A DNA stretch of 64,000 bases, taken from assembly GCA_964538435.1 (NCBI GenBank), contig CAZIDX010000003.1:15948-79947 (forward strand), written 5' to 3'. The notes beneath the pieces were generated by a model, which made no database searches, had not been told where the DNA came from, and worked only from the letters and a program-made list of their open reading frames with translations. The translations under genes were made by a program, and so were the position numbers. This DNA comes from an uncultured Gammaproteobacteria bacterium (GTDB lineage Bacteria; Patescibacteriota; Patescibacteriia; UBA9934; GWF2-40-263). Shown piece after piece: positions 16,665-59,480 of the stretch; the stretch's first letter is position 1; each line of letters begins with the position of its first letter.

Positions 16665-16759
16665 ACAGGTATGAAGGGATTATATCAGCCCCACCTTACC
16701 CCGTCACTGAGAGATTGACTAATAAGGGTGATATACTATAGTAAGCAACCACAAGATAC

Positions 16760-16835
16760 GGGCCTGTAGCTCAGTGGTTAGAGCGCGAAGCTTATACCTT
16801 CGTGGTCGATGGTTCAAATCCATCCAGGCCCACCA
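16760..16835 (+). tRNA. tRNA-Ile with anticodon UAU (unmodified-type AUA decoder), CCA encoded
   Basis: GGGCCTGTAGCTCAGTGGTTAGAGCGCGAAGCTTATACCTTCGTGGTCGATGGTTCAAATCCATCCAGGCCCACCA. Acceptor GGGCCTG/CAGGCCC. Anticodon stem CGAAG/CTTCG with loop CTTATAC, giving anticodon TAT. Confidence 0.75.
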
Positions 16836-17941: not shown

Positions 17942-18487
17942 ATGATCATCACACTCACTGGCCTTCCTGGAGCCGGCAAATCAACCATCGCAACCTTGCT
18001 CTCAGAGCAACTCAACATGCCTTGGTACTCCATTGGTGACCTGAGAGGCAAAATGGCAGAAGAACGAGGTATGACCATAGACCAACTCAATGCACTCGGA
18101 GAACACGACGCCTCAACCGACAACAGCGTTGATGAGTACCAAACCAAACTTGGTCAAACTGAGGACAACTTTATTGTGGATGGGCGCCTCTCATGGCACT
18201 TCATTCCAAGCTCATTCAAAATCTTCCTTGACGTCGATGAAGACCATGCTGCTGAGCGTATTTTTCACGCCTCAAAAGAAGGCCTAAGACCCGATGAAGA
18301 CCCGTACGAAACCCCAGAAGACGTACGCAAAACAATTGAAGCGCGCCTGGCATCAGACCAGAAGAGATACCACAAGTACTACAACATCAACTACCTAGAT
18401 CGAGACAATTACGACCTCATAATCGACACAAGCACCAAAACCCCCGAAGAAATCGTAAAAATCATCAAAGAAGCCATAAGCCGTTGA
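17942..18487 (+). CDS. cmk: Cytidylate kinase, archaeal/family-2 type (P-loop (d)CMP kinase)
   Basis: MIITLTGLPGAGKSTIATLLSEQL P-loop. Overall similarity to short family-2 CMP kinases. Start 3 bp after the rluD stop. Confidence 0.6.
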   Translation: MIITLTGLPGAGKSTIATLLSEQLNMPWYSIGDLRGKMAEERGMTIDQLNALGEHDASTDNSVDEYQTKLGQTEDNFIVDGRLSWHFIPSSFKIFLDVDEDHAAERIFHASKEGLRPDEDPYETPEDVRKTIEARLASDQKRYHKYYNINYLDRDNYDLIIDTSTKTPEEIVKIIKEAISR

Positions 18488-18590
18488 CAAAAACGGCTTT
18501 TTTGTTTATGATTGCGCCACATTAAGCACTTATCTAAGAACACTGATTGCCCGCTGTGGTGATGTGGTCCGCTAGGAAGTGACATAAGAA

Positions 18591-20795: not shown

Positions 20796-21143
20796 CTAGC
20801 CTCCGAGCTGAGGCGGAAATACATGCTCGAAGTGTGGTCGGTACCGATAGTCTCGAATGACCGTCGGTTCTTTGTTGTTGGGACCCCAGAACAGAACCCT
20901 GTGCCACAAAGGTCGCGGCTGCGAGAGTCTCTGCCAGTAGGTCCATGCCACCTGGTTGCTCAACAGCATCGAGCCGCCGTGAAAGAACGCGTTCGCATCC
21001 GATCCTGTGAGCAGGTCGTACGCCCACTCATGATCCTGTGCGTACACACGCACCTGATGATCGATCACACGAGGCACCACGAACAGCAGTGTGAGCAAAC
21101 AGATGACAACACACCAGTCACCCACATTTCTCAGATATCTCAT
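20796..21143 (-). CDS. Hypothetical small membrane-anchored protein (GC-rich class)
   Basis: 115 aa with an N-terminal TM (WCVVICLLTLLFVV) and GC3-rich codons. Confidence 0.35.
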   Translation of the reverse strand: MRYLRNVGDWCVVICLLTLLFVVPRVIDHQVRVYAQDHEWAYDLLTGSDANAFFHGGSMLLSNQVAWTYWQRLSQPRPLWHRVLFWGPNNKEPTVIRDYRYRPHFEHVFPPQLGG

Positions 21144-21659: not shown

Positions 21660-23381
21660 TTAGATAGTCTTTACATCCTCACCAGATTCCACATGACTTC
21701 CTGATCCATAAGACCAAAGAGTTGTGGCATTCACCTCAACAATCCCGATGTTCCAGTCATCTCCGAAGATCTCACCGGCAGCAGTCTCAGAGGTAATCCA
21801 ATGAAGTTTGTAATCAGATCCTACTACGTATACACGCGGTGAGGTCGCAGCCTTCACACGTGTTCCAGGAGCGAACTTGAGGTCACCCTCAAATTCGTAA
21901 ACACTGAAGTATGCATCAATTGTTGCATCGCTTACTTCATTCATCTGGTCCCATGAACTAAACCATGAGAAGTAGACATTCTCGTCAGGAACAAGCCACA
22001 TTTGGCTGCCACTAACAAGATATACGTCTGCAGATGAAGCTGATGTATACGCCTCAACATCAGCGCGCTCAAGGTCAAGAAGAGGAAGGAAAGTTACCTG
22101 ATAGGTAGCTCCGTCATCTCCAACCCAGTAGGCATGATCAATATCGCTAAGGTAGACTGGCTCATCACCAAACCCAACGTTCATAAGAAACTTTGTTGTC
22201 TGGTTCTCATACCAAATGTCTCCATTAGCATCGATTCCAACAAGGATATCCTCGTTTGAATCGGTAACATGATAGGTTCGGGTTTCCCACTCACCAGTTG
22301 CAAATGTGTAAGAAACATACTCACCCGCATCATTCTGGAAGTAGATCGCATCACTCTCAAGGGTAAAACTACCGTAAAGAGCAACACCGAACTTTGACAC
22401 ACCTGAAAGATCACGAACATAAAGCCCGTTCTCATCATCGATGTATGCCATGTAATCTCCAATCGTCTGCACAGCCTCATCAGCTGAATCTGCAAACCAT
22501 GAAAGATATGCGCCACCAGCCTCTACAGGAACCTCGTCAACTGACGGGTTATAACTGAAGAGCTGGTAGTTCTGGAAGTAGTACACTACGCCATCAGACG
22601 TAAAGTGTGCACCAAGAATCTCGCCTGGCTCCTCAGTCCAAGTCTCAGGAATCGCTTCCATCTGACGTGCGGTCTGATCAATAAGCCAGAGCTGCTCAAA
22701 GCCTCCAGAGAACTGGAACTTCACAAGAGCGAGTCCGTCTTGAACGTCCTCAATCTCCTGCCAAGGAGCAGTGAGAGTGTAAGTGAAGTCGTCGCGCTCA
22801 TATCCGGTTTCAAGATCGAAAACAGAAAGCTGAGCCTCAACCTCACCTGTTCCATCCTCTGCTACGAGGACAGATGTATAAATCCGATCACCATCTGTAG
22901 CAAAGGTCATGAAAGAAAGATCAGAGTCATTTCGATCAATCACCATAAGCTCGCCAAGCGAACCTGTAGCTGGATCAAACTCATAGATCGTTCCCCAATC
23001 AACATTGTCTTCAGTTGGAACACGGAAGATGAATCGGTCATCCTGAGCAGTGTGCCAGAAGTCCGATGTGATAGTGTCACTAACACCCTCCACTGTGAGC
23101 TCCTGCCCATCAGAGAGAATGGTGACATCAACCAAGTTGCAGTTACCCTCGTCCTCACAAGCATCTGAAATCTCCGTCACAAACGTTACGTCTGCAAACT
23201 GATAAATCCCATCAGCATTGTCGAGCTCGAGGCGCTGAACCTGGTAAAAATCGTAATCCCAAGCAGCTTCAGCCATGGTGTTTGACCATTCCCCAGAATC
23301 TGCAAACGCAGAAGGAAGAAACGGACTCACCAAGACTGCAACTGCGATTGCAATCACGAGAGGTTTCTTAAGTGTTGTCAT
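21660..23381 (-). CDS. Hypothetical secreted protein (573 aa, acidic, beta-rich)
   Basis: Signal peptide MTTLKKPLVIAIAVAVLVSPFLPSAFA. Promoter TTGACAAAATGACC (minus sense) at about 23453. Confidence 0.5.
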   Translation of the reverse strand: MTTLKKPLVIAIAVAVLVSPFLPSAFADSGEWSNTMAEAAWDYDFYQVQRLELDNADGIYQFADVTFVTEISDACEDEGNCNLVDVTILSDGQELTVEGVSDTITSDFWHTAQDDRFIFRVPTEDNVDWGTIYEFDPATGSLGELMVIDRNDSDLSFMTFATDGDRIYTSVLVAEDGTGEVEAQLSVFDLETGYERDDFTYTLTAPWQEIEDVQDGLALVKFQFSGGFEQLWLIDQTARQMEAIPETWTEEPGEILGAHFTSDGVVYYFQNYQLFSYNPSVDEVPVEAGGAYLSWFADSADEAVQTIGDYMAYIDDENGLYVRDLSGVSKFGVALYGSFTLESDAIYFQNDAGEYVSYTFATGEWETRTYHVTDSNEDILVGIDANGDIWYENQTTKFLMNVGFGDEPVYLSDIDHAYWVGDDGATYQVTFLPLLDLERADVEAYTSASSADVYLVSGSQMWLVPDENVYFSWFSSWDQMNEVSDATIDAYFSVYEFEGDLKFAPGTRVKAATSPRVYVVGSDYKLHWITSETAAGEIFGDDWNIGIVEVNATTLWSYGSGSHVESGEDVKTI

Positions 23382-23489
23382 AGCTTTTTTGGCTGAAACG
23401 CCTTACTTTTTTACGCTAAACTAACGGCAAATATTAGCATAAATTGGTCATTTTGTCAAGCAGACATAAGACTTTTTGCACTAAAATTA

Positions 23490-23865
23490 GCACAAAACGA
23501 AGACCCCCGCCGCAAGGCTAAGGGGTCCGTATCGTTGGCTTACAAGCCTATTACTTGATTCCCATTGGGTCGTTCTGTGTGGTTGGGTTCCTGATGAATC
23601 AGGCCTTAAGGCACGCCCGTTAGGACTGTTTTGGCTTGTTTTGTTCCGGAAAAACCTCCGGTTGGGGCTGTGCCGCCAGTAGCGACACGAGATCGGGCAG
23701 TGGCTCACTAATGGAAGAGCCGAATCGTCACTTGCACCTCCATGCCATCATTGGCGGGGCGACGAGAGGGAGAGAGATCGGGTTGACGGGCATCAGAGCC
23801 CTACACGCCTACCCTGGACGCCAATGGCTCGCAGCCGGGCGCTTCTGCAGGACAGGAGAAGTAGT
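23490..23865 (-). ncRNA. Candidate structured ncRNA of unknown family (GC-rich, ORF-poor, promoter + terminator)
   Basis: About 570-bp gene-free interval at about 58% GC. Minus-sense promoter GGTTGACAAAAGTGTCATTTTGTGCTAGACT at 23866-23895. Minus-sense terminator GACCCCttagccttgcggcGGGGGTCttcgttttgt at about 23490-23530. No match to RNase P, tmRNA or SRP conserved motifs found by eye. Confidence 0.3.
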
Positions 23866-23954
23866 CTAGCACAAAATGACACTTTTGTCAACCATGCCAG
23901 ACAGTAATCGAAAAGCCGCCAGCATCGTTGCTAGCGGCCGTATGGGACTTGGGT

Positions 23955-24425
23955 TCAGGTACCAGAGAACCTTCTTGTGGTCTCCACCCTGAACACATCG
24001 ACCCCCTTCAAGGTCTCACACACACTCCCCACAAACTCCCTGTCGCGCTGCGGGAGGCTTTGCACCCCCTGAGACCTCTTGACGATCTCTTCGAGGAAGA
24101 ACGAGGTGTTTCGCTGGTGGACATACATCGACTCAGCAGAGATCCTGATGATCCTGCTTTTGAATTCACCCAGCACCTCATCGAGCTCGAGGAGGGTTTC
24201 TTCCAGAAGCTGCAGGGTCTGAAGACCATCATCTCGGTTCGAATCCAGAACCTTGGTCCAGGACCAAAGCACATCAGAACTCGATCCCCGACAAAGCTCC
24301 AGTCCAACAGTCCGCTCAGGATCAGATCCAACTCGCTCGATCCTCAAGGTCCAGTTACCTTTTGGATCTGGATCACCACCCGCCTGCCTCAGTACCTGTA
24401 GGTTATCCTTGAGTGAACTCATCTT
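23955..24425 (-). CDS. Hypothetical protein (GC-rich class). Start taken at MSSLKDNL.
   Basis: Long ORF 23955..24533. The first 36 codons look like read-through. ATG at 24425 gives a 156-aa acidic protein. Confidence 0.35.
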   Translation of the reverse strand, partial: KMSSLKDNLQVLRQAGGDPDPKGNWTLRIERVGSDPERTVGLELCRGSSSDVLWSWTKVLDSNRDDGLQTLQLLEETLLELDEVLGEFKSRIIRISAESMYVHQRNTSFFLEEIVKRSQGVQSLPQRDREFVGSVCETLKGVDVFRVETTRRFSGT

Positions 24426-24546
24426 CTCGTCCTTCCTGCGCCATCTCTGCAGCGCGTGTCGAGAATCGAACCTAACACAAACACACCACCATGTCAATAG
24501 CAACAAACAAAAAAACGCGCACAGTGCACGCACGTTTTCTTATCGA

Positions 24547-24960
24547 TTATTTCTGCTCAAGCCATTCTCTTGCATCTGGTACCGAGTCAAAAATCTTCAT
24601 CACCCCTTTTCTCCCAACAAGATGCGCAATAAAATTCCCAAGAGCCTTAAGTGCAACACTCCCTCCAGCTACGGCAATATGCCCAAGCCTATCATCCTTA
24701 CACATTTCAATGTACTTATCTCTTGCCGCATGAGCCGTGAACGTCACATTGTCCAAGCGCACAATATCGAAAAGCAAATTCATTTGCTCAAGCTCAGACT
24801 CATCAAGAATCTCTTTCACTGCATCATGCACATACCCAGCAAGCCACTCCTGCTGTTCACTATTCCCATCTTTTAAAAACTCAACAATAATCAAATCGTT
24901 TTCACGATTGATAGAAATGATTTCTTTTAACTCTTCCTGTGTAGGCTCTGTCATACACAA
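24547..24960 (-). CDS. STAS-domain protein (anti-sigma-factor-antagonist-like fold), putative
   Basis: 137 aa. Pattern ...IIVEFLKDG...LDNVTFTAHAA...IAVAGGSVALKALG.. resembles STAS/SpoIIAA-like domains. Weak call. Confidence 0.4.
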   Translation of the reverse strand: MCMTEPTQEELKEIISINRENDLIIVEFLKDGNSEQQEWLAGYVHDAVKEILDESELEQMNLLFDIVRLDNVTFTAHAARDKYIEMCKDDRLGHIAVAGGSVALKALGNFIAHLVGRKGVMKIFDSVPDAREWLEQK

Positions 24961-24984
24961 ACCATTCTACACCAACCCGAAATC

Positions 24985-25010
24985 AAAAAACAGGCCATGC
25001 GACCTGTTTA
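24985..25010. terminator. Intrinsic terminator after uvrA
   Basis: aaaaaaCAGGccatgcgaCCTGtttacttc. Confidence 0.45.
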
Positions 25011-25067
25011 CTTCATACCAAAACGAGGTGAGCGAGAACCTGCTTGTGCCAGACGGTCGAGCGACCC

Positions 25068-36014: not shown

Positions 36015-36150
36015 TCAAAAAGACCAAAAACCCGCCAGAAGGTGGGTTTTTAGGTTGACAAAAGTGCCAAAACGTGCTATGGTAGTTAACCAAAACTGAA
36101 CAACCCTGAAACGAACAACTCTCTGCACAACATGCAGATGAAAGGACGCT

Positions 36151-36658: not shown

Positions 36659-36748
36659 CGAGGTATTGTGAGAAAAATCACGAGGTGGTGGTCGTCTATC
36701 CTGCGAGACGGCCCGGCTCCGCCTCGTTATTTTTCTCACAATACCTCG
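36659..36748 (+). repeat. Hairpin-embedded conserved-core element, copy 1
   Basis: Core GAGGTGGTGGTCGTCTATCCTGCGAGACGGCCCGGCTCCGCC (36682-36723) flanked by 24-bp perfect inverted repeat cgaggtattgtgagaaaaatcac / tcgttatttttctcacaatacctcg. Confidence 0.8.
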
Positions 36749-39164: not shown

Positions 39165-39272
39165 AACCAAACAAGAGCGAAGCTATGGTGCGATAAAGAA
39201 TTTTCGAGGTGGTGGTCATCTAGACAGCGCGATGGCCCGGCTCCGCCGAGAAAACTCTTTATTGCACCATGG
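39165..39272 (+). repeat. Hairpin-embedded conserved-core element, copy 2 (with 5' AAGAGCGAAGCT module)
   Basis: Core GAGGTGGTGGTCATCTAGACAGCGCGATGGCCCGGCTCCGCC (39206-39247). Flanks ctatggtgcgataaagaattttc / gagaaaactctttattgcaccatgg. Confidence 0.8.
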
Positions 39273-40981: not shown

Positions 40982-41094
40982 GGCTTTCTCACTCGGTTGA
41001 AGAGAACATTTCCTTGAGCACCAAAGTACTCCGGACCAAAAACTTAGCGTTTTAAGCCCTTTTTGTCAATTGAAAAGACGCCCTCGAAAGGACG

Positions 41095-42285: not shown

Positions 42286-42371
42286 GATTTCCTCCGGTTT
42301 GCTTTGCTCTCAGTAAAAAAGCCAAGAACAAAACCTATCAGCAGTTACTCATTTTGTCAAGATTTCCAACC

Positions 42372-42402: not shown

Positions 42403-42822
42403 TGTCCCAGGAAATGTCTGTAAGCCGAATTTTGTCTGCCTGCACCGACTAGTGCAGGGAGATGGCAATCTATCTAGGCCCCCTATTGCTAAAGGGCTCG
42501 AGCGAGCTACCAAATTTGCTCTTACACCAGAGAGGGTTTACCACGCACCCATGTCACCACGGGGCGAAACACGTAGCCAAACCTGACCTCGTGTTACTTT
42601 TCACCTTTCATCCCACCGAAGTGGAATTAGTATAGTCTCTGTGGCACTTTCCCTAGGCTTTGATGCGGCTGGGAAGCGGAATTCCAACCCCTCAACGCGC
42701 ACCTTATACCTGGTCACCGTTAGTGACTCCCCTTTTCGCCCCGCTTTGCAGAGGGACGGGTGTTCGGACTTTCCTCGAACTCCACAAGGGAGCTCGTAGC
42801 CATCCAACATTCCTGAGACGCC
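42400..42822 (-). ncRNA. rnpB: RNase P RNA (bacterial type)
   Basis: Minus strand contains CR-I GAGGAAAGTCCGAAC (RC of 42762-42776) and CR-IV-like ACAAAATTCGGCTTACAG (RC of 42421-42438). P4 pairing AGUCCGAA/UUCGGCUU shows GG->AA compensated by CC->UU relative to E. coli. P1 GTCTCAGGAATG/CATTTCCTGGGAC at the ends. TTGACA-N17-TAAGCT promoter at 42823-42858. Terminator at the 3' end. Confidence 0.7.
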
Positions 42823-42858
42823 AAAAGCTTAACAGAAAAAACCCACTTTGTCAATCCC
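42823..42858 (-). promoter_or_regulatory. Promoter of rnpB (-35 TTGACA, -10 TAAGCT)
   Basis: Minus sense ATTGACAAAGTGGGTTTTTTCTGTTAAGCTTTTGGCGTCTCAGG. Confidence 0.5.
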
Positions 42859-44354: not shown

Positions 44355-44665
44355 CCCCTTCACACAAACAAGAGCGCAGCTGTGGTGTAAATAATTGACA
44401 CAAGGTGGTGGTGCCCCCTGCGATATCGGGCGCCCGGCTCCGCCCGCAGTTGCCCCTACCCCAACCAAGAGCGAAGCTGTGATGCTGAAATAAGTTTCTG
44501 AGGTGGTGGTCGTCTATACTGTGAGACGGCCCGGCTCCGCCCGCAAAAGCACCTTCACACAAACAAGAGCGCAGCTGTGGTGTAAATAATTGACACAAGG
44601 TGGTGGTGCCCCCTGCGATATCGGGCGCCCGGCTCCGCCTTGTGTCAATTATTTACACCACAGCA
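44355..44665 (+). repeat. Cluster of three hairpin-embedded core elements (copies 3-5). Copies 3 and 5 are an about 80-bp direct duplication. Only copy 5 keeps both IR arms.
   Basis: Cores at 44402-44444 (AAGGTGGTGGTGCCCCCTGCGATATCGGGCGCCCGGCTCCGCC), 44500-44541 (GAGGTGGTGGTCGTCTATACTGTGAGACGGCCCGGCTCCGCC) and 44598-44639. Copy-5 flanks gtggtgtaaataattgacacaa / ttgtgtcaattatttacaccac. Confidence 0.8.
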
Positions 44666-44673
44666 AGCGACAT

Positions 44674-44702
44674 TGACAAAACCCCATTTTTTGCCTATTA
44701 TT
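44674..44702 (+). promoter_or_regulatory. Sigma70-like promoter for the glycosyltransferase operon (TTGACA-N17-TATTAT)
   Basis: cattgacaaaaccccattttttgcctattatttc. Confidence 0.5.
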
Positions 44703-44730: not shown

Positions 44731-45825
44731 ATGAAACTAGCGCTTGTACACGACTATTTAATGCAAGACGGAGGTGCAGAAAAGGTGTTGGACGTATTCC
44801 AAGGACTATGGCCAGCAGCCCCAACCTACACCCTGTTTTTTGATCCAAAAAAAGTCCCAACCTTTGCCGGTCGGGATATTCGCACATCATTTTTACAACG
44901 CATCCCCTTTGCCATGCGCAAGTACCAGTGGCTCCTCACACTCATGCCACTTGCAACAGAACGCATGGATGTCATTCCTTACGATGTTGTCCTGTCTTCA
45001 ACCAGCGCATTTGCAAAAGGCATTATCACAAACGAGAACGCAATACACATCTGTTACTGTCACACCCCTACCCGCTACCTGTGGTCTGACACACATAGCT
45101 ACGTTGAGGAACTTCGCGTACCACGCCTTGTCAAAGCCATTCTCCCGCCAGTCCTTTCTCGACTGCGTATGTGGGACAAGCACGCCGCAGACCGCGTAGA
45201 TCTTTTCATTGCAAACTCACAGACCGTAAAAAACCGAATCAAAAAATACTACAGGCGCAACGCAACAGTCATCCACCCCCCCGTCGACACACACAGATTC
45301 TCAATCTCAAACAAACCAAAAGAATACTTCCTCACAGGAGGTCGTCTCGTCGCCTACAAACGCTATGACATGGTTGTGGAGGCCGCAAACAGAACAGGTA
45401 TCCCCCTCAAGATCTTTGGATCAGGACCGATCGAAAAAGACTTGCGAAAAATGGCAAAGTCGAACGTAGAATTTCTCGGTCGCGTAAGTGACAAAGAGCA
45501 AGCCAAACTCTACGCAAACGCAAAAGCCTTTATTCACCCTCAAGAAGAAGACTTTGGAATCACACCCGTTGAATCCATGGCAGCAGGCCGCCCGGTTATT
45601 GCCTACCGAAAAGGCGGCGCAACAGAGACTGTTCAAGAAGGACTCTCGGGTCAATTCATTGACGAACAATCCTGGGAAGAACTTGCAGATCACATGATTC
45701 GATTCGACGAAAAAGATTACTTCCCGCCCGCCATCAAAAACTACGCAGAAAAATTCTCTCGCAAACGCTTCGAGCAAGAAATGCGAGACTTTGTCTCAAA
45801 ACACTTCACAAACCACCGAGAGTAA
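44731..45825 (+). CDS. Glycosyltransferase family 4
   Basis: MKLALVHDYLMQDGGAEKVL N-terminus. C-terminal GT4 E-x7-E-type motif region (FIHPQEEDFGITPVESMAAGRPVIA). Confidence 0.75.
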   Translation: MKLALVHDYLMQDGGAEKVLDVFQGLWPAAPTYTLFFDPKKVPTFAGRDIRTSFLQRIPFAMRKYQWLLTLMPLATERMDVIPYDVVLSSTSAFAKGIITNENAIHICYCHTPTRYLWSDTHSYVEELRVPRLVKAILPPVLSRLRMWDKHAADRVDLFIANSQTVKNRIKKYYRRNATVIHPPVDTHRFSISNKPKEYFLTGGRLVAYKRYDMVVEAANRTGIPLKIFGSGPIEKDLRKMAKSNVEFLGRVSDKEQAKLYANAKAFIHPQEEDFGITPVESMAAGRPVIAYRKGGATETVQEGLSGQFIDEQSWEELADHMIRFDEKDYFPPAIKNYAEKFSRKRFEQEMRDFVSKHFTNHRE

Positions 45826-45919
45826 TCTGTTTATGTGAATACTTTGTGAGGTGGTGGTGCCCCCTGCGATATTGGGCGCCCGGCTCCGACGAATATAGTA
45901 TTTACATAAACAGATTACG
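45822..45919 (+). repeat. Hairpin-embedded conserved-core element, copy 6. Left arm overlaps the GT4 stop codon.
   Basis: Core GAGGTGGTGGTGCCCCCTGCGATATTGGGCGCCCGGCTCCGAC (45848-45890). Flanks gtaatctgtttatgtgaatactttgtg / cgaatatagtatttacataaacagattac. Confidence 0.8.
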
Positions 45920-53801: not shown

Positions 53802-53834
53802 AAAAAACCACTGATCAATATGATCGGTGGTTTT
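53802..53834. terminator. Bidirectional intrinsic terminator
   Basis: aaaaaaCCACTGATCAatatGATCGGTGGtttt. Confidence 0.6.
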
Positions 53835-54610
53835 AAAAAGCAAGAGTCCCCACCCGACCGAAGTCAGATGGGGACCGTTCTCGCAACCTGTCTCCTGCCC
53901 CTACATGACTTGCAGGGCTTCAGCCGGCGGCGATCACGTCGCACACATCGGCGGCCCGAGGTGGGGCCAGAAGTATCAGATGTTGAGGGATGGGGGCTCG
54001 TACTCTTGTCCCCCTCAAAACGCAGCTGATTTTGGGCGCGCTCAGCCGAGCGCACAGCGTTCGAAGAACCAACATGGCTTTGGCATCGGACCTCGCAGGC
54101 GTCGTTGGGGGAGCGGGGCGGAGGAAGGGCACGGTCACCTTCCCCTCACCCCTGGTTGGAGGGACAGTCCATTTCGCAGCGCAGCAGCGCTCCCGGCCTC
54201 CCATGATCACACACCAGGAAGAAGCAGAAGGCGGGCCAGCGCTGAAGAGCTCGGTCGGCGGCGAAGCGTAGCAGGCAGGCCAAGGTCGGCCTCCTCTCGC
54301 TCCGGCGCGGGGCACGGCAACCAGTCGGAATCCCTTTCGGGCCACAACAGTTGGCGTGAGTAGCACATGCAGCTCTCGCAGCCAGACGGCAACATCGCCG
54401 ACGGCCACGCTCAGCAGCCTGCATGCACCCAGATCTCGGCGCGGCTTAGGACTGTTTTGCTGGGTCTCCGTGACTCCCAGCTGACATGAACGCAAGGCAT
54501 CTCGACGGCGACCAGGGAGGCCGCATCAGCGCCGAACCATGCGTCTTGCACCCAACCGTGTGGCCCATGGCAATGCCAAAAGGCGAAGCAGAGGTTGACG
54601 AGCAAGGATG
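53835..54610 (-). ncRNA. Candidate large GC-rich noncoding transcript or structured RNA (about 780 nt, about 63% GC), unknown family
   Basis: No credible ORF: track ORFs here are Arg/Pro/Ala-rich GC artefacts on both strands. Minus-sense promoter GGGTTGACAAAAACAC at about 54641-54650. Terminator at 53802-53834. Shares the 14-mer TTAGGACTGTTTTG with the 23.5-kb candidate ncRNA. Confidence 0.25.
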
Positions 54611-54702
54611 CAAGGTATCACATTTGGGTGTTTTTGTCAACCCACTCACCTCAAAAACACCTATTTTCGACAAAAAAACGACATTTTACCAACCCTTACT
54701 GA

Positions 54703-54803
54703 GCGAAGCTGTGGTATTGCATGAGAATATGTGAGGTGGTGGTCGTCTATCCTTCGAGACGGCCCGGCTCCGCCGAACATATTCTCATGCAATACCATAG
54801 CGA
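54703..54803 (+). repeat. Hairpin-embedded conserved-core element, copy 7 (with 5' GAGCGAAGCT and 3' GCGAGCGTATTAGAAAA modules)
   Basis: Core GAGGTGGTGGTCGTCTATCCTTCGAGACGGCCCGGCTCCGCC (54733-54774). Flanks gctgtggtattgcatgagaatatgt / gaacatattctcatgcaataccatagc. Confidence 0.8.
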
Positions 54804-59124: not shown

Positions 59125-59364
59125 AGAAATGTGTTTACCCGCCCTTTCTGGGCGAGAGCCTGCAAGAGGCTTTTTCCAAGATCCCCACTGTCACACCAAG
59201 CGGCACAACAATGAAGAGCGGCGTGATCAGCAATGTAGCTCCCACCCCAACCTTCGCACAAGCACCAAGAGCCACCACCGCGCACCGCAGCACAGGGAAC
59301 CTACTCTTCTTCATCACTCACCTCCAAAAGAGTTAGTAAATTCCATCACTCCCCCACGCAAGCA

Positions 59365-59462
59365 ACAAATGAGATTTCTAGATTACGTAGCGAGGTGGTG
59401 GTCATCTATACGGCGAGATGGCCCGGCTCCGCCGAGCGAAGTAATCTATAAATCTCATTTGT
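59365..59462 (+). repeat. Hairpin-embedded conserved-core element, copy 8
   Basis: Core GAGGTGGTGGTCATCTATACGGCGAGATGGCCCGGCTCCGCC (59392-59433). 27-bp flanks acaaatgagatttctagattacgtagc / gagcgaagtaatctataaatctcatttgt. Confidence 0.8.
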
Positions 59463-59480
59463 TACGCAGCCACACCCTAC

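Follow-up and report, generated by a model that had tools for sequence, protein, structure and literature searches.

On the minus strand of the interval 23382-23954, the window, that is the whole 64,000-nucleotide stretch of DNA that was analysed, contains a self-contained non-coding unit. A promoter of high quality and an intrinsic terminator enclose a body of about 360 nt that carries no protein gene, and compared with its relatives this genome has the unit as an insertion. The reading we favour, tentatively, is that the unit is a young, orphan and lineage-restricted non-coding RNA (ncRNA) gene, functional and independently transcribed, whose largely unstructured product acts in trans.

The gene-free interval is real. 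It extends from the stop codon of a 155-aa ORF (23955) to the start of a 573-aa ORF (23381), and the description of it in an earlier, sequence-only reading as holding short ORFs only is borne out by the ORF listing, by negative codon-usage scores and by the lack of 3-base periodicity. Along the minus strand, the 155-aa stop codon is followed by terminator 1, promoter A, the body of the unit, terminator 2, promoter B, a 50-nt leader and the 573-aa ORF. The features are as follows.

23905..23939, minus strand: terminator 1, an 11-bp GC-rich hairpin (23939..23914) followed by UUUUCGAUUA, found by terminator scan and by folding against shuffles
23863..23891, minus strand: promoter A, TTGACAAAAGTGTCATTTTGTGCTAGACT, with the -35 box TTGACA, a 17-nt spacer and the TG-extended -10 box TAGACT
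23494..23856, minus strand: predicted untranslated transcript, about 360 nt, 58% GC and C-rich (31% C)
23620..23633, minus strand: the 14-mer CAAAACAGUCCUAA in common with the 54-kb candidate, probably coincidental in the unit
23492..23528, minus strand: terminator 2, hairpin GGACCCC..GGGGUC (23528..23502) followed by UUCGUUUUGU
23431..23459, minus strand: promoter B of the 573-aa gene, TTGACA-17-TAATAT, the downstream boundary, outside the unit

The promoter TTGACA-N17-TAGACT, previously placed at 23866-23895, is thus present a few bases away at 23891..23863. The terminator expected at about 23490-23530, a GC-rich hairpin with a U-run, is likewise there, with a ΔG of -21.6 kcal/mol and a z-score of -3.03. 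Terminator 1 has a ΔG of -20.1 kcal/mol and a z-score of -4.54, with none of 200 shuffles as good; as a predicted terminator, it would end transcription of the upstream 155-aa gene and insulate the unit. That two strong intrinsic terminators bracket the unit supports its reading as an RNA gene. Taking the start to lie near 23856, a position derived from the geometry of promoter A, the promoter and terminator positions predict a transcript of about 360 nt (23856..23494), close to the 370 nt or so proposed from the sequence alone. No gene lies within 482 nt downstream of promoter A. The unit therefore has its own promoter and an intrinsic terminator around a non-coding body, which is how a stand-alone ncRNA gene is recognised.

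The GC content was said to exceed that of the flanks, and this holds: the predicted transcript has 58.2% GC, with a 200-nt peak of 63%, against 48.5% for the window and 46.9% for the 573-aa gene. This is 10 points over the genome; the RNase P RNA of the window (53%) and the 54-kb candidate (63%) are also higher. The 5' half of the transcript, at 62% GC, is predicted to be poorly structured, and the 3' half to contain short hairpins. The window belongs to a metagenome-assembled genome of Candidatus Uhrbacteria (Patescibacteria/CPR). A copy identical to the window over the interval is present in the Logan assembly of SRR8146440, and the same sequence is found in an NCBI contig of 178,555 bp.

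Promoter A resembles many others in the window. The pattern TTGAC[AT]-N16-18-TANNNT occurs 13 times, with 10 of the occurrences intergenic. The sites have in common the extended consensus TTGACAAA...TGnTAnnnT, in which TTGACAAA is followed by N and then by a T-rich stretch ahead of the TG.

16715-16742, 18484-18512, 23431-23459, 24469-24497, 36055-36083, 41041-41069, 42332-42360, 42826-42854, 44673-44701: other sites of the promoter class in the window

Members of this class lie 47-68 nt upstream of protein-gene starts; one is directly 5' of the RNase P RNA (end of the -10 box at 42826, start of the Rfam match at 42815) and another directly 5' of tRNA-Ile. Scored with a weight matrix for which eight of the window's other promoters served as the training set, promoter A itself being left out, promoter A reaches 25.9 bits and is the top non-training site among some 128,000 positions. 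The best scores in 20 window-wide shuffles averaged 11.6 bits, with a maximum of 21.1 bits. To judge from its sequence, promoter A is a member of the host's own strongest promoter class rather than foreign. Only promoter A and the promoter at 54640..54612 are class members that have no gene behind them. Across Uhrbacteria the 573-aa homologue has a conserved counterpart of promoter B upstream of it, and the analysis as a whole sharpens the strong-promoter consensus of this lineage. Throughout the window, few genes have a recognisable Shine-Dalgarno sequence at their starts. Several genes have a -10-like box as little as 8-18 nt upstream of the start codon, a spacing suggestive of leaderless mRNAs or of very short leaders.

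The body of the unit is non-coding. Its codon-usage log-odds are negative in all six frames, from -0.12 to -0.29, a range that also holds for the RNase P RNA; 360-nt windows of true genes give +0.22 ± 0.09. The unit has no 3-base periodicity (p=0.155), and in the neighbouring genes, where periodicity is strong, 0 of 200 shuffles were as periodic. Six-frame translation of the unit gave no match at E≤10 among the best 8000 candidates from 5.8 billion proteins, nor did blastx return anything significant when the 2,291 ORFs of 50 codons or more in the related loci served as the database. The longest ORF, of 77 aa and antisense, was rejected as a protein gene; its single match in 1.84 billion representatives is a 57-aa tandem-repeat-protein artefact. 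A decayed protein gene was rejected, since these searches gave no protein similarity and codon periodicity is missing. A type I toxin–antitoxin system involving a 22-aa hydrophobic plus-strand ORF (23555-23623) was dropped because a plus-strand promoter was not found.

Comparison of both strands of 23300-24050 with the 4227 models of Rfam 15, which cover 6S, tmRNA, SRP, RNase P, riboswitches, T-box, ribozymes and OLE, GOLLD, ROOL and raiA among others, gave no match at the gathering threshold and none at E≤10. ARAGORN found no tmRNA; tRNA-Val and tRNA-Ile are its only calls in the window. These searches agree with the statement of the sequence-only reading that the interval matches none of RNase P, tmRNA, SRP RNA or 6S, and the Rfam/Infernal scan of both strands that it had proposed assigns the unit to no known family at E≤10. 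The RNase P RNA that it had placed elsewhere in the window is confirmed by Rfam at 42404-42815 on the minus strand, with 159 bits. The interval contains no tandem repeats, and its internal repeats are short and at chance level only. Repeat-based RNA loci (CRISPR, TIGR arrays, ToxI-like loci and the DGR template repeat) were rejected, as there is no tandem repeat and no second copy of the unit in the window.

The unit had also been proposed to be a structured ncRNA. It is indeed non-coding, has a promoter and a terminator and matches no known family, but the word structured is not upheld. For the minus strand, the minimum free energy (MFE) of the whole transcript has a z-score of -0.42, and 32 of 100 shuffles fold equally well; the RNase P RNA in the same window reaches -3.90. 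The plus strand of the unit gives -0.25. In sliding 100-nt windows the mean z-score of the unit is -0.13, its 5' 175 nt being less stable than shuffles, and that of the RNase P RNA is -1.17. The 54-kb candidate has a z-score of only -0.84 though it is conserved, so the test is weak. The folding calculations therefore argue against a compact fold of the unit RNA, in a test that is not decisive.

Among known RNAs, two invite comparison. 6S RNA is an abundant housekeeping RNA of about 180-200 nt with a strong promoter and its own terminator; it forms a single rod with a central bubble and paired 5' and 3' ends, and in divergent phyla sequence models often fail to detect it. We rejected 6S RNA as an identity for the unit, which has about 360 nt and a multi-branched MFE fold with unpaired termini, matches no Rfam 6S model at E≤10 and, contrary to the expectation for a housekeeping RNA, is absent from relatives. 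The RNase P RNA resembles the unit in promoter class, in length and in elevated GC but differs in having a strong family match and a z-score of -3.9, where the unit has no match and a z-score of -0.4. Long intergenic regions of high GC are enriched for ncRNA genes (PMC6429828), and the unit is like the stand-alone ncRNA genes of such screens (Stav et al. 2019, PMC6429828) in being gene-free, in its raised GC, in its own promoter and Rho-independent terminator and in giving no coding signal. The candidates of that study, however, need homologues with conserved sequence and covariation, whereas for the unit no homologue was found in the collections searched and folding is no better than that of shuffles. 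Stand-alone bacterial ncRNA genes are well known as a kind, and the unit would be an orphan member.

The history of the unit emerges from comparison with relatives. The comparison covered the surroundings of 573-aa homologues in 29 genome loci and 23 metagenome loci, together with several individual contigs, about 55 syntenic loci in all. Searches with blastn and nhmmer found no match to the body of the unit in these loci; conservation is limited to promoter B and the 5' leader. Lack of conservation in relatives, which together with lack of transcription had been named as counting against the candidate, is thus what the ~55 loci show, as far as it is testable. In most relatives uvrA directly precedes the 573-aa homologue with a spacer of about 100-150 bp, and in others one or two unrelated small ORFs (125-253 aa) lie between them. 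A promoter scan of nine relatives' loci with extra DNA at the site found one class promoter in each, the counterpart of promoter B.

The nearest relative compared as DNA (L031/L048) has 71-73% identity in the 573-aa protein. Its locus contains a homologue of the 155-aa ORF, a single terminator and a homologue of promoter B, the promoter B region being 82.5% identical to that of L031 over 149 nt. From the gene stop to promoter B there are about 105 bp in this relative and about 495 bp in the window, which points to a lineage-specific insertion of about 390 bp. Terminator 2 and a small hairpin after it align with the spacers of L031 and L032, whereas terminator 1 and promoter A do not; a counterpart of terminator 1, looked for by alignment in these two spacers, was not found. 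Since terminator 2 is located where relatives have the terminator of the 155-aa-gene homologue, it is probably the ancestral terminator of the 155-aa gene, co-opted by the unit. On these alignments, the unit is a lineage-specific insertion of some 390-425 bp, comprising terminator, promoter and body, between the 155-aa stop codon and the old terminator.

A tandem duplication of the terminator–promoter module was considered and rejected: the second module aligns with relatives, and the first shares generic promoter similarity only. A mobile or viral origin was rejected as well, for the unit showed no similarity to phages or plasmids by blastn, nor to viral contigs in 20-mer scans, and the inserted segment has no terminal inverted repeats.

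Of the two closer relatives, one may carry an insert at the same site too; the other, GCA_900089805.1, was compared in the 54-kb region. The UvrA of the first, JGI metagenome 3300072015, clusters at 90% with that of the window, and the 573-aa homologue there is 82% identical. The uvrA contig (10,736 bp) ends 16 nt after a 163-aa gene, and the contig with the 573-aa homologue (4,057 bp) has 342 nt upstream of it, where no gene lies on the same strand and the gene calls include a single antisense ORF fragment. From the gene calls on these contigs, the spacer is probably at least 220-358 nt. The distance from gene stop to gene start in L031 and L032 is 160-180 bp, and it is the longer spacer in the metagenome that raises the possibility of an insert there.

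The spacer between uvrA and the 573-aa gene (window 23382-25067; L002-L055) is an insertion hot spot, empty in most relatives. In the window it holds a SpoIIAA-like 137-aa ORF, the 155-aa ORF (with homologues in L031 and L032) and the unit. The proteins neighbouring the unit have no PADLOC or NCBIfam match, and their only Pfam match is the SpoIIAA-like one of the 137-aa ORF; defence-system or RNA-associated neighbours were rejected on these results.

The favoured reading, a functional RNA gene, would account for these observations as follows. A segment of about 390-425 bp would have been inserted just past the stop codon of the 155-aa gene, bringing with it a terminator, a promoter and an RNA body, and would use the old terminator of the 155-aa gene as its own. 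Transcription from promoter A, of sigma-70 type, would start near 23856 and stop at the intrinsic terminator near 23494, giving an untranslated C-rich RNA of about 360 nt. We infer that the unit is transcribed, with ends near these positions, and that its product is functional. The RNA would most likely be regulatory or sequestering in trans through its weakly structured, C-rich 5' half, and a compactly folded catalytic or scaffold role would be less likely. The conserved 54-kb unit, which stands behind the same type of promoter, indicates that in this lineage a unit with no protein gene can be a real RNA gene. The insert's layout of terminator, promoter and body is also the one expected of a copied, complete RNA gene. 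A search for trans targets among the 42 translation-start regions of the window, by a crude method, gave a best duplex no better than shuffles. Also counting against the favoured reading are the missing homologues, in the ~55 loci and in the phage, plasmid and viral collections, the unremarkable folding stability and the empty Rfam scan. A full-text literature search found no papers on regulatory RNAs of candidate-phyla-radiation bacteria. If transcribed and functional, the unit would exemplify an RNA gene of very recent origin in a streamlined genome, and a complete cassette of terminator, promoter and body would have been acquired at a recombination hot spot. It is at present an orphan without comparative support, and a single sequence cannot show selection on it; its value is mainly as a target for transcript mapping.

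The strongest competitor, possible if rather doubtful, is that the unit is a functionless relic or a recent neutral insertion, either a leftover cassette or a captured foreign GC-rich fragment, perhaps transcribed but without a role. The site is highly variable in the way described above, the segment is unique to this genome among the ~55 loci, its composition is foreign to the genome and the folding z-scores carry no structure signal. The state of the segment nevertheless speaks against decay. No trace of a decayed ORF is seen in periodicity, in blastx against the relatives' cassette ORFs, which returned nothing significant, or in the six-frame search with its 8000 best candidates. Promoter A and both terminators are intact and near consensus, a state that one would not expect of DNA decaying in a genome so small and gene-dense, and promoter A is of the host's own class.

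That the unit encodes a very small protein, or is a dual-function RNA, is improbable. The first AUG of the unit (23793) lies 70 nt past the -10 box, a distance similar to that of real genes behind the promoter class, and opens a 21-codon ORF; read-through of a single in-frame UGA would extend it to a 57-codon frame that ends at the TAA inside the 14-mer. An ORF ends at this TAA in both the unit and the 54-kb unit, and since most genes of the window have no Shine-Dalgarno sequence, its absence here is uninformative. The frame of 23793, however, has the worst codon score of the six (-0.29), and UGA serves as a stop in this genome, for example at the end of the 155-aa gene. The sister genome has CAA in place of the TAA of the 54-kb unit, whose ORF is therefore not conserved. 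No protein homologue appeared among the 8000 best candidates, and about 230 nt of the transcript would be left unexplained.

Still less credit is due to the notion that the unit serves the 573-aa gene in cis, as a long leader or as a second promoter further upstream, with terminator 2 as a regulated attenuator of the riboswitch or T-box kind. The unit is on the same strand immediately upstream, a terminator does precede the 573-aa gene, and AAGUAAUAGGCUUGUAAGCCAA (23556..23535) resembles the conserved 5'-UTR hairpin AAGUAAGGCGUUUCAGCCAA (23408..23389) of the 573-aa mRNA. Against this, the 573-aa gene retains its conserved promoter B downstream of terminator 2, relatives do without such a leader, Rfam finds no riboswitch, T-box or leader family at E≤10, and terminator 2 appears to be the upstream gene's ancestral terminator. 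The resemblance between the hairpins is borderline; by a rough estimate about 0.1 would be expected by chance in the region.

The leader hairpin of the 573-aa mRNA, GGCGUUUCAGCC, lies 10-12 nt before the start codon and is identical in the three closest species. Its look-alike is in the 3' part of the unit, at window 23535-23556.

window 23389-23408 (minus strand), L031:2582-2593 and L032:3983-3994: 573-aa leader hairpin

The 54-kb candidate is itself a gene-less unit, of 63% GC and about 780 nt, at 53830-54640 on the minus strand (body about 53830-54606) behind a promoter of the same class. It has no Rfam match. An orthologue is present in GCA_900089805.1 (L056:11830-12640), where the FemAB at the locus has 84% protein and 79% DNA identity. 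The two copies of the unit align in blocks with 77-80% nucleotide identity, and the stretches between the blocks are rich in indels. RNAalifold predicts 162 pairs for the two sequences, 27 of them changed on both sides, as in the hairpin CUGGG..CCCAG, which becomes CCAGG..CCUGG. Such compensatory changes are only suggestive, the structure being derived from the same two sequences. The candidate is absent in more distant relatives (L057/L058 and L059/L060), and the JGI 3300072015 relative has an 857-bp gene-free gap at its position. So far as two sequences can suggest, it has the look of a genuine large RNA, undescribed and belonging to a narrow clade of Uhrbacteria, and the comparative signature of a real structured RNA is on this candidate, not on the unit at 23 kb. 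The two agree in promoter class, high GC, non-coding character, lack of an Rfam match and absence from distant Uhrbacteria, and have one 14-mer in common; they differ in length, the 54-kb unit being roughly double the other, and in that the 54-kb unit has an orthologue with conserved blocks, whereas the studied unit has no known orthologue.

The 14-mer is present, as reported, at 23620-23633 and 54446-54459, but the link that was drawn from it does not survive. Against the window the match is near chance (blastn E=0.3), with equally good unrelated matches. For this pair alone its score is reached by 2 of 300 dinucleotide shuffles, and the alignment consists of the 14-mer only, with no extension; against the sister-genome copy of the 54-kb region the match is not found, and 147 of 300 shuffles do as well. 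An nhmmer profile of the 54-kb candidate and its orthologue gave nothing in the unit at E≤10. MAFFT, the nhmmer profile and Smith–Waterman alignment with shuffles reveal the 14-mer only, and paralogy was rejected. By these comparisons the two units are not detectably related, and the shared 14-mer is most likely a coincidence.

The proposal that the unit is nevertheless a diverged paralogue or a functional partner of the 54-kb RNA, CAAAACAGUCCUAA being a common site through which it might, for instance, mimic and compete for a GGACUG strand, is as improbable as the cis-acting leader. It draws on the low number of shuffles that reach the 14-mer score for this pair, on these being the only two gene-less units behind the promoter class and on the place of the motif within the 54-kb RNA, where it falls inside a conserved block and where a predicted helix joins its CAGUCC to a GGACUG some 290 nt further downstream. 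The predicted helix is, however, invariant and so gains no support from covariation, and the orthologue's copy of the motif differs, reading C-AAACAGUCCCAA with CAA in place of TAA. By inspection, the unit contains no GGACUG partner for the CAGUCC of its 14-mer. The window-wide E-value, the end of similarity at the 14-mer and the empty profile search stand against the proposal as well. Fainter still is its most elaborate form, which takes the predicted closure of a long-range helix in the larger RNA by the CAAAACAGUCCUAA element as its basis and would make the two units members of a set of Uhrbacteria-specific, strongly expressed ncRNAs that form an RNA–RNA regulatory pair, in which the studied unit would be a recent mimic or competitor tuning the folding or partner binding of the larger RNA in a reduced-genome symbiont.

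Elsewhere in the window there are eight long hairpins of about 90 nt, which combine a conserved apical core with basal arms of 30-35 nt that are variable but complementary.

36659-36748, 39167-39254, 44357-44444, 44461-44548, 44552-44664, 45803-45890, 54708-54801, 59364-59463, plus strand: long-hairpin copies

The core occurs in two variants, GGTGGTGGTCGTCTA..GAGACGGCCCGGCTCCGCC and GGTGGTGGTGCCCCC..GGGCGCCCGGCTCCG. All eight copies are intergenic and all are in the plus orientation, whatever the direction of the genes. The family has no Rfam match, and the 3' arm of the first variant's core, GGCCCGGCTCCGCC, is absent in 60 of 60 relatives' loci.

The 573-aa protein (21660-23381, minus strand) belongs to a family of at least 54 members with many invariant Trp, Gly and Asp residues. 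The family is seemingly restricted to Uhrbacteria and relatives: all named ones among the 54 homologues come from Uhrbacteria, Parcubacteria or Patescibacteria, and most of the retrieved genome loci are titled likewise. No Pfam, NCBIfam or PADLOC domain was found in the protein; its translation suggests a signal-peptide-like N-terminus. Nearby, a 115-aa ORF (20796-21143, minus strand), preceded by GGAGGAG, fills most of a 641-bp interval left empty by public gene calls, and that interval is therefore not another non-coding candidate. Finally, the tRNA-Ile found by ARAGORN at window 16760-16835 has the anticodon UAU. This tRNA is uncommon in bacteria, in which AUA is usually decoded by a lysidine-modified CAU tRNA.
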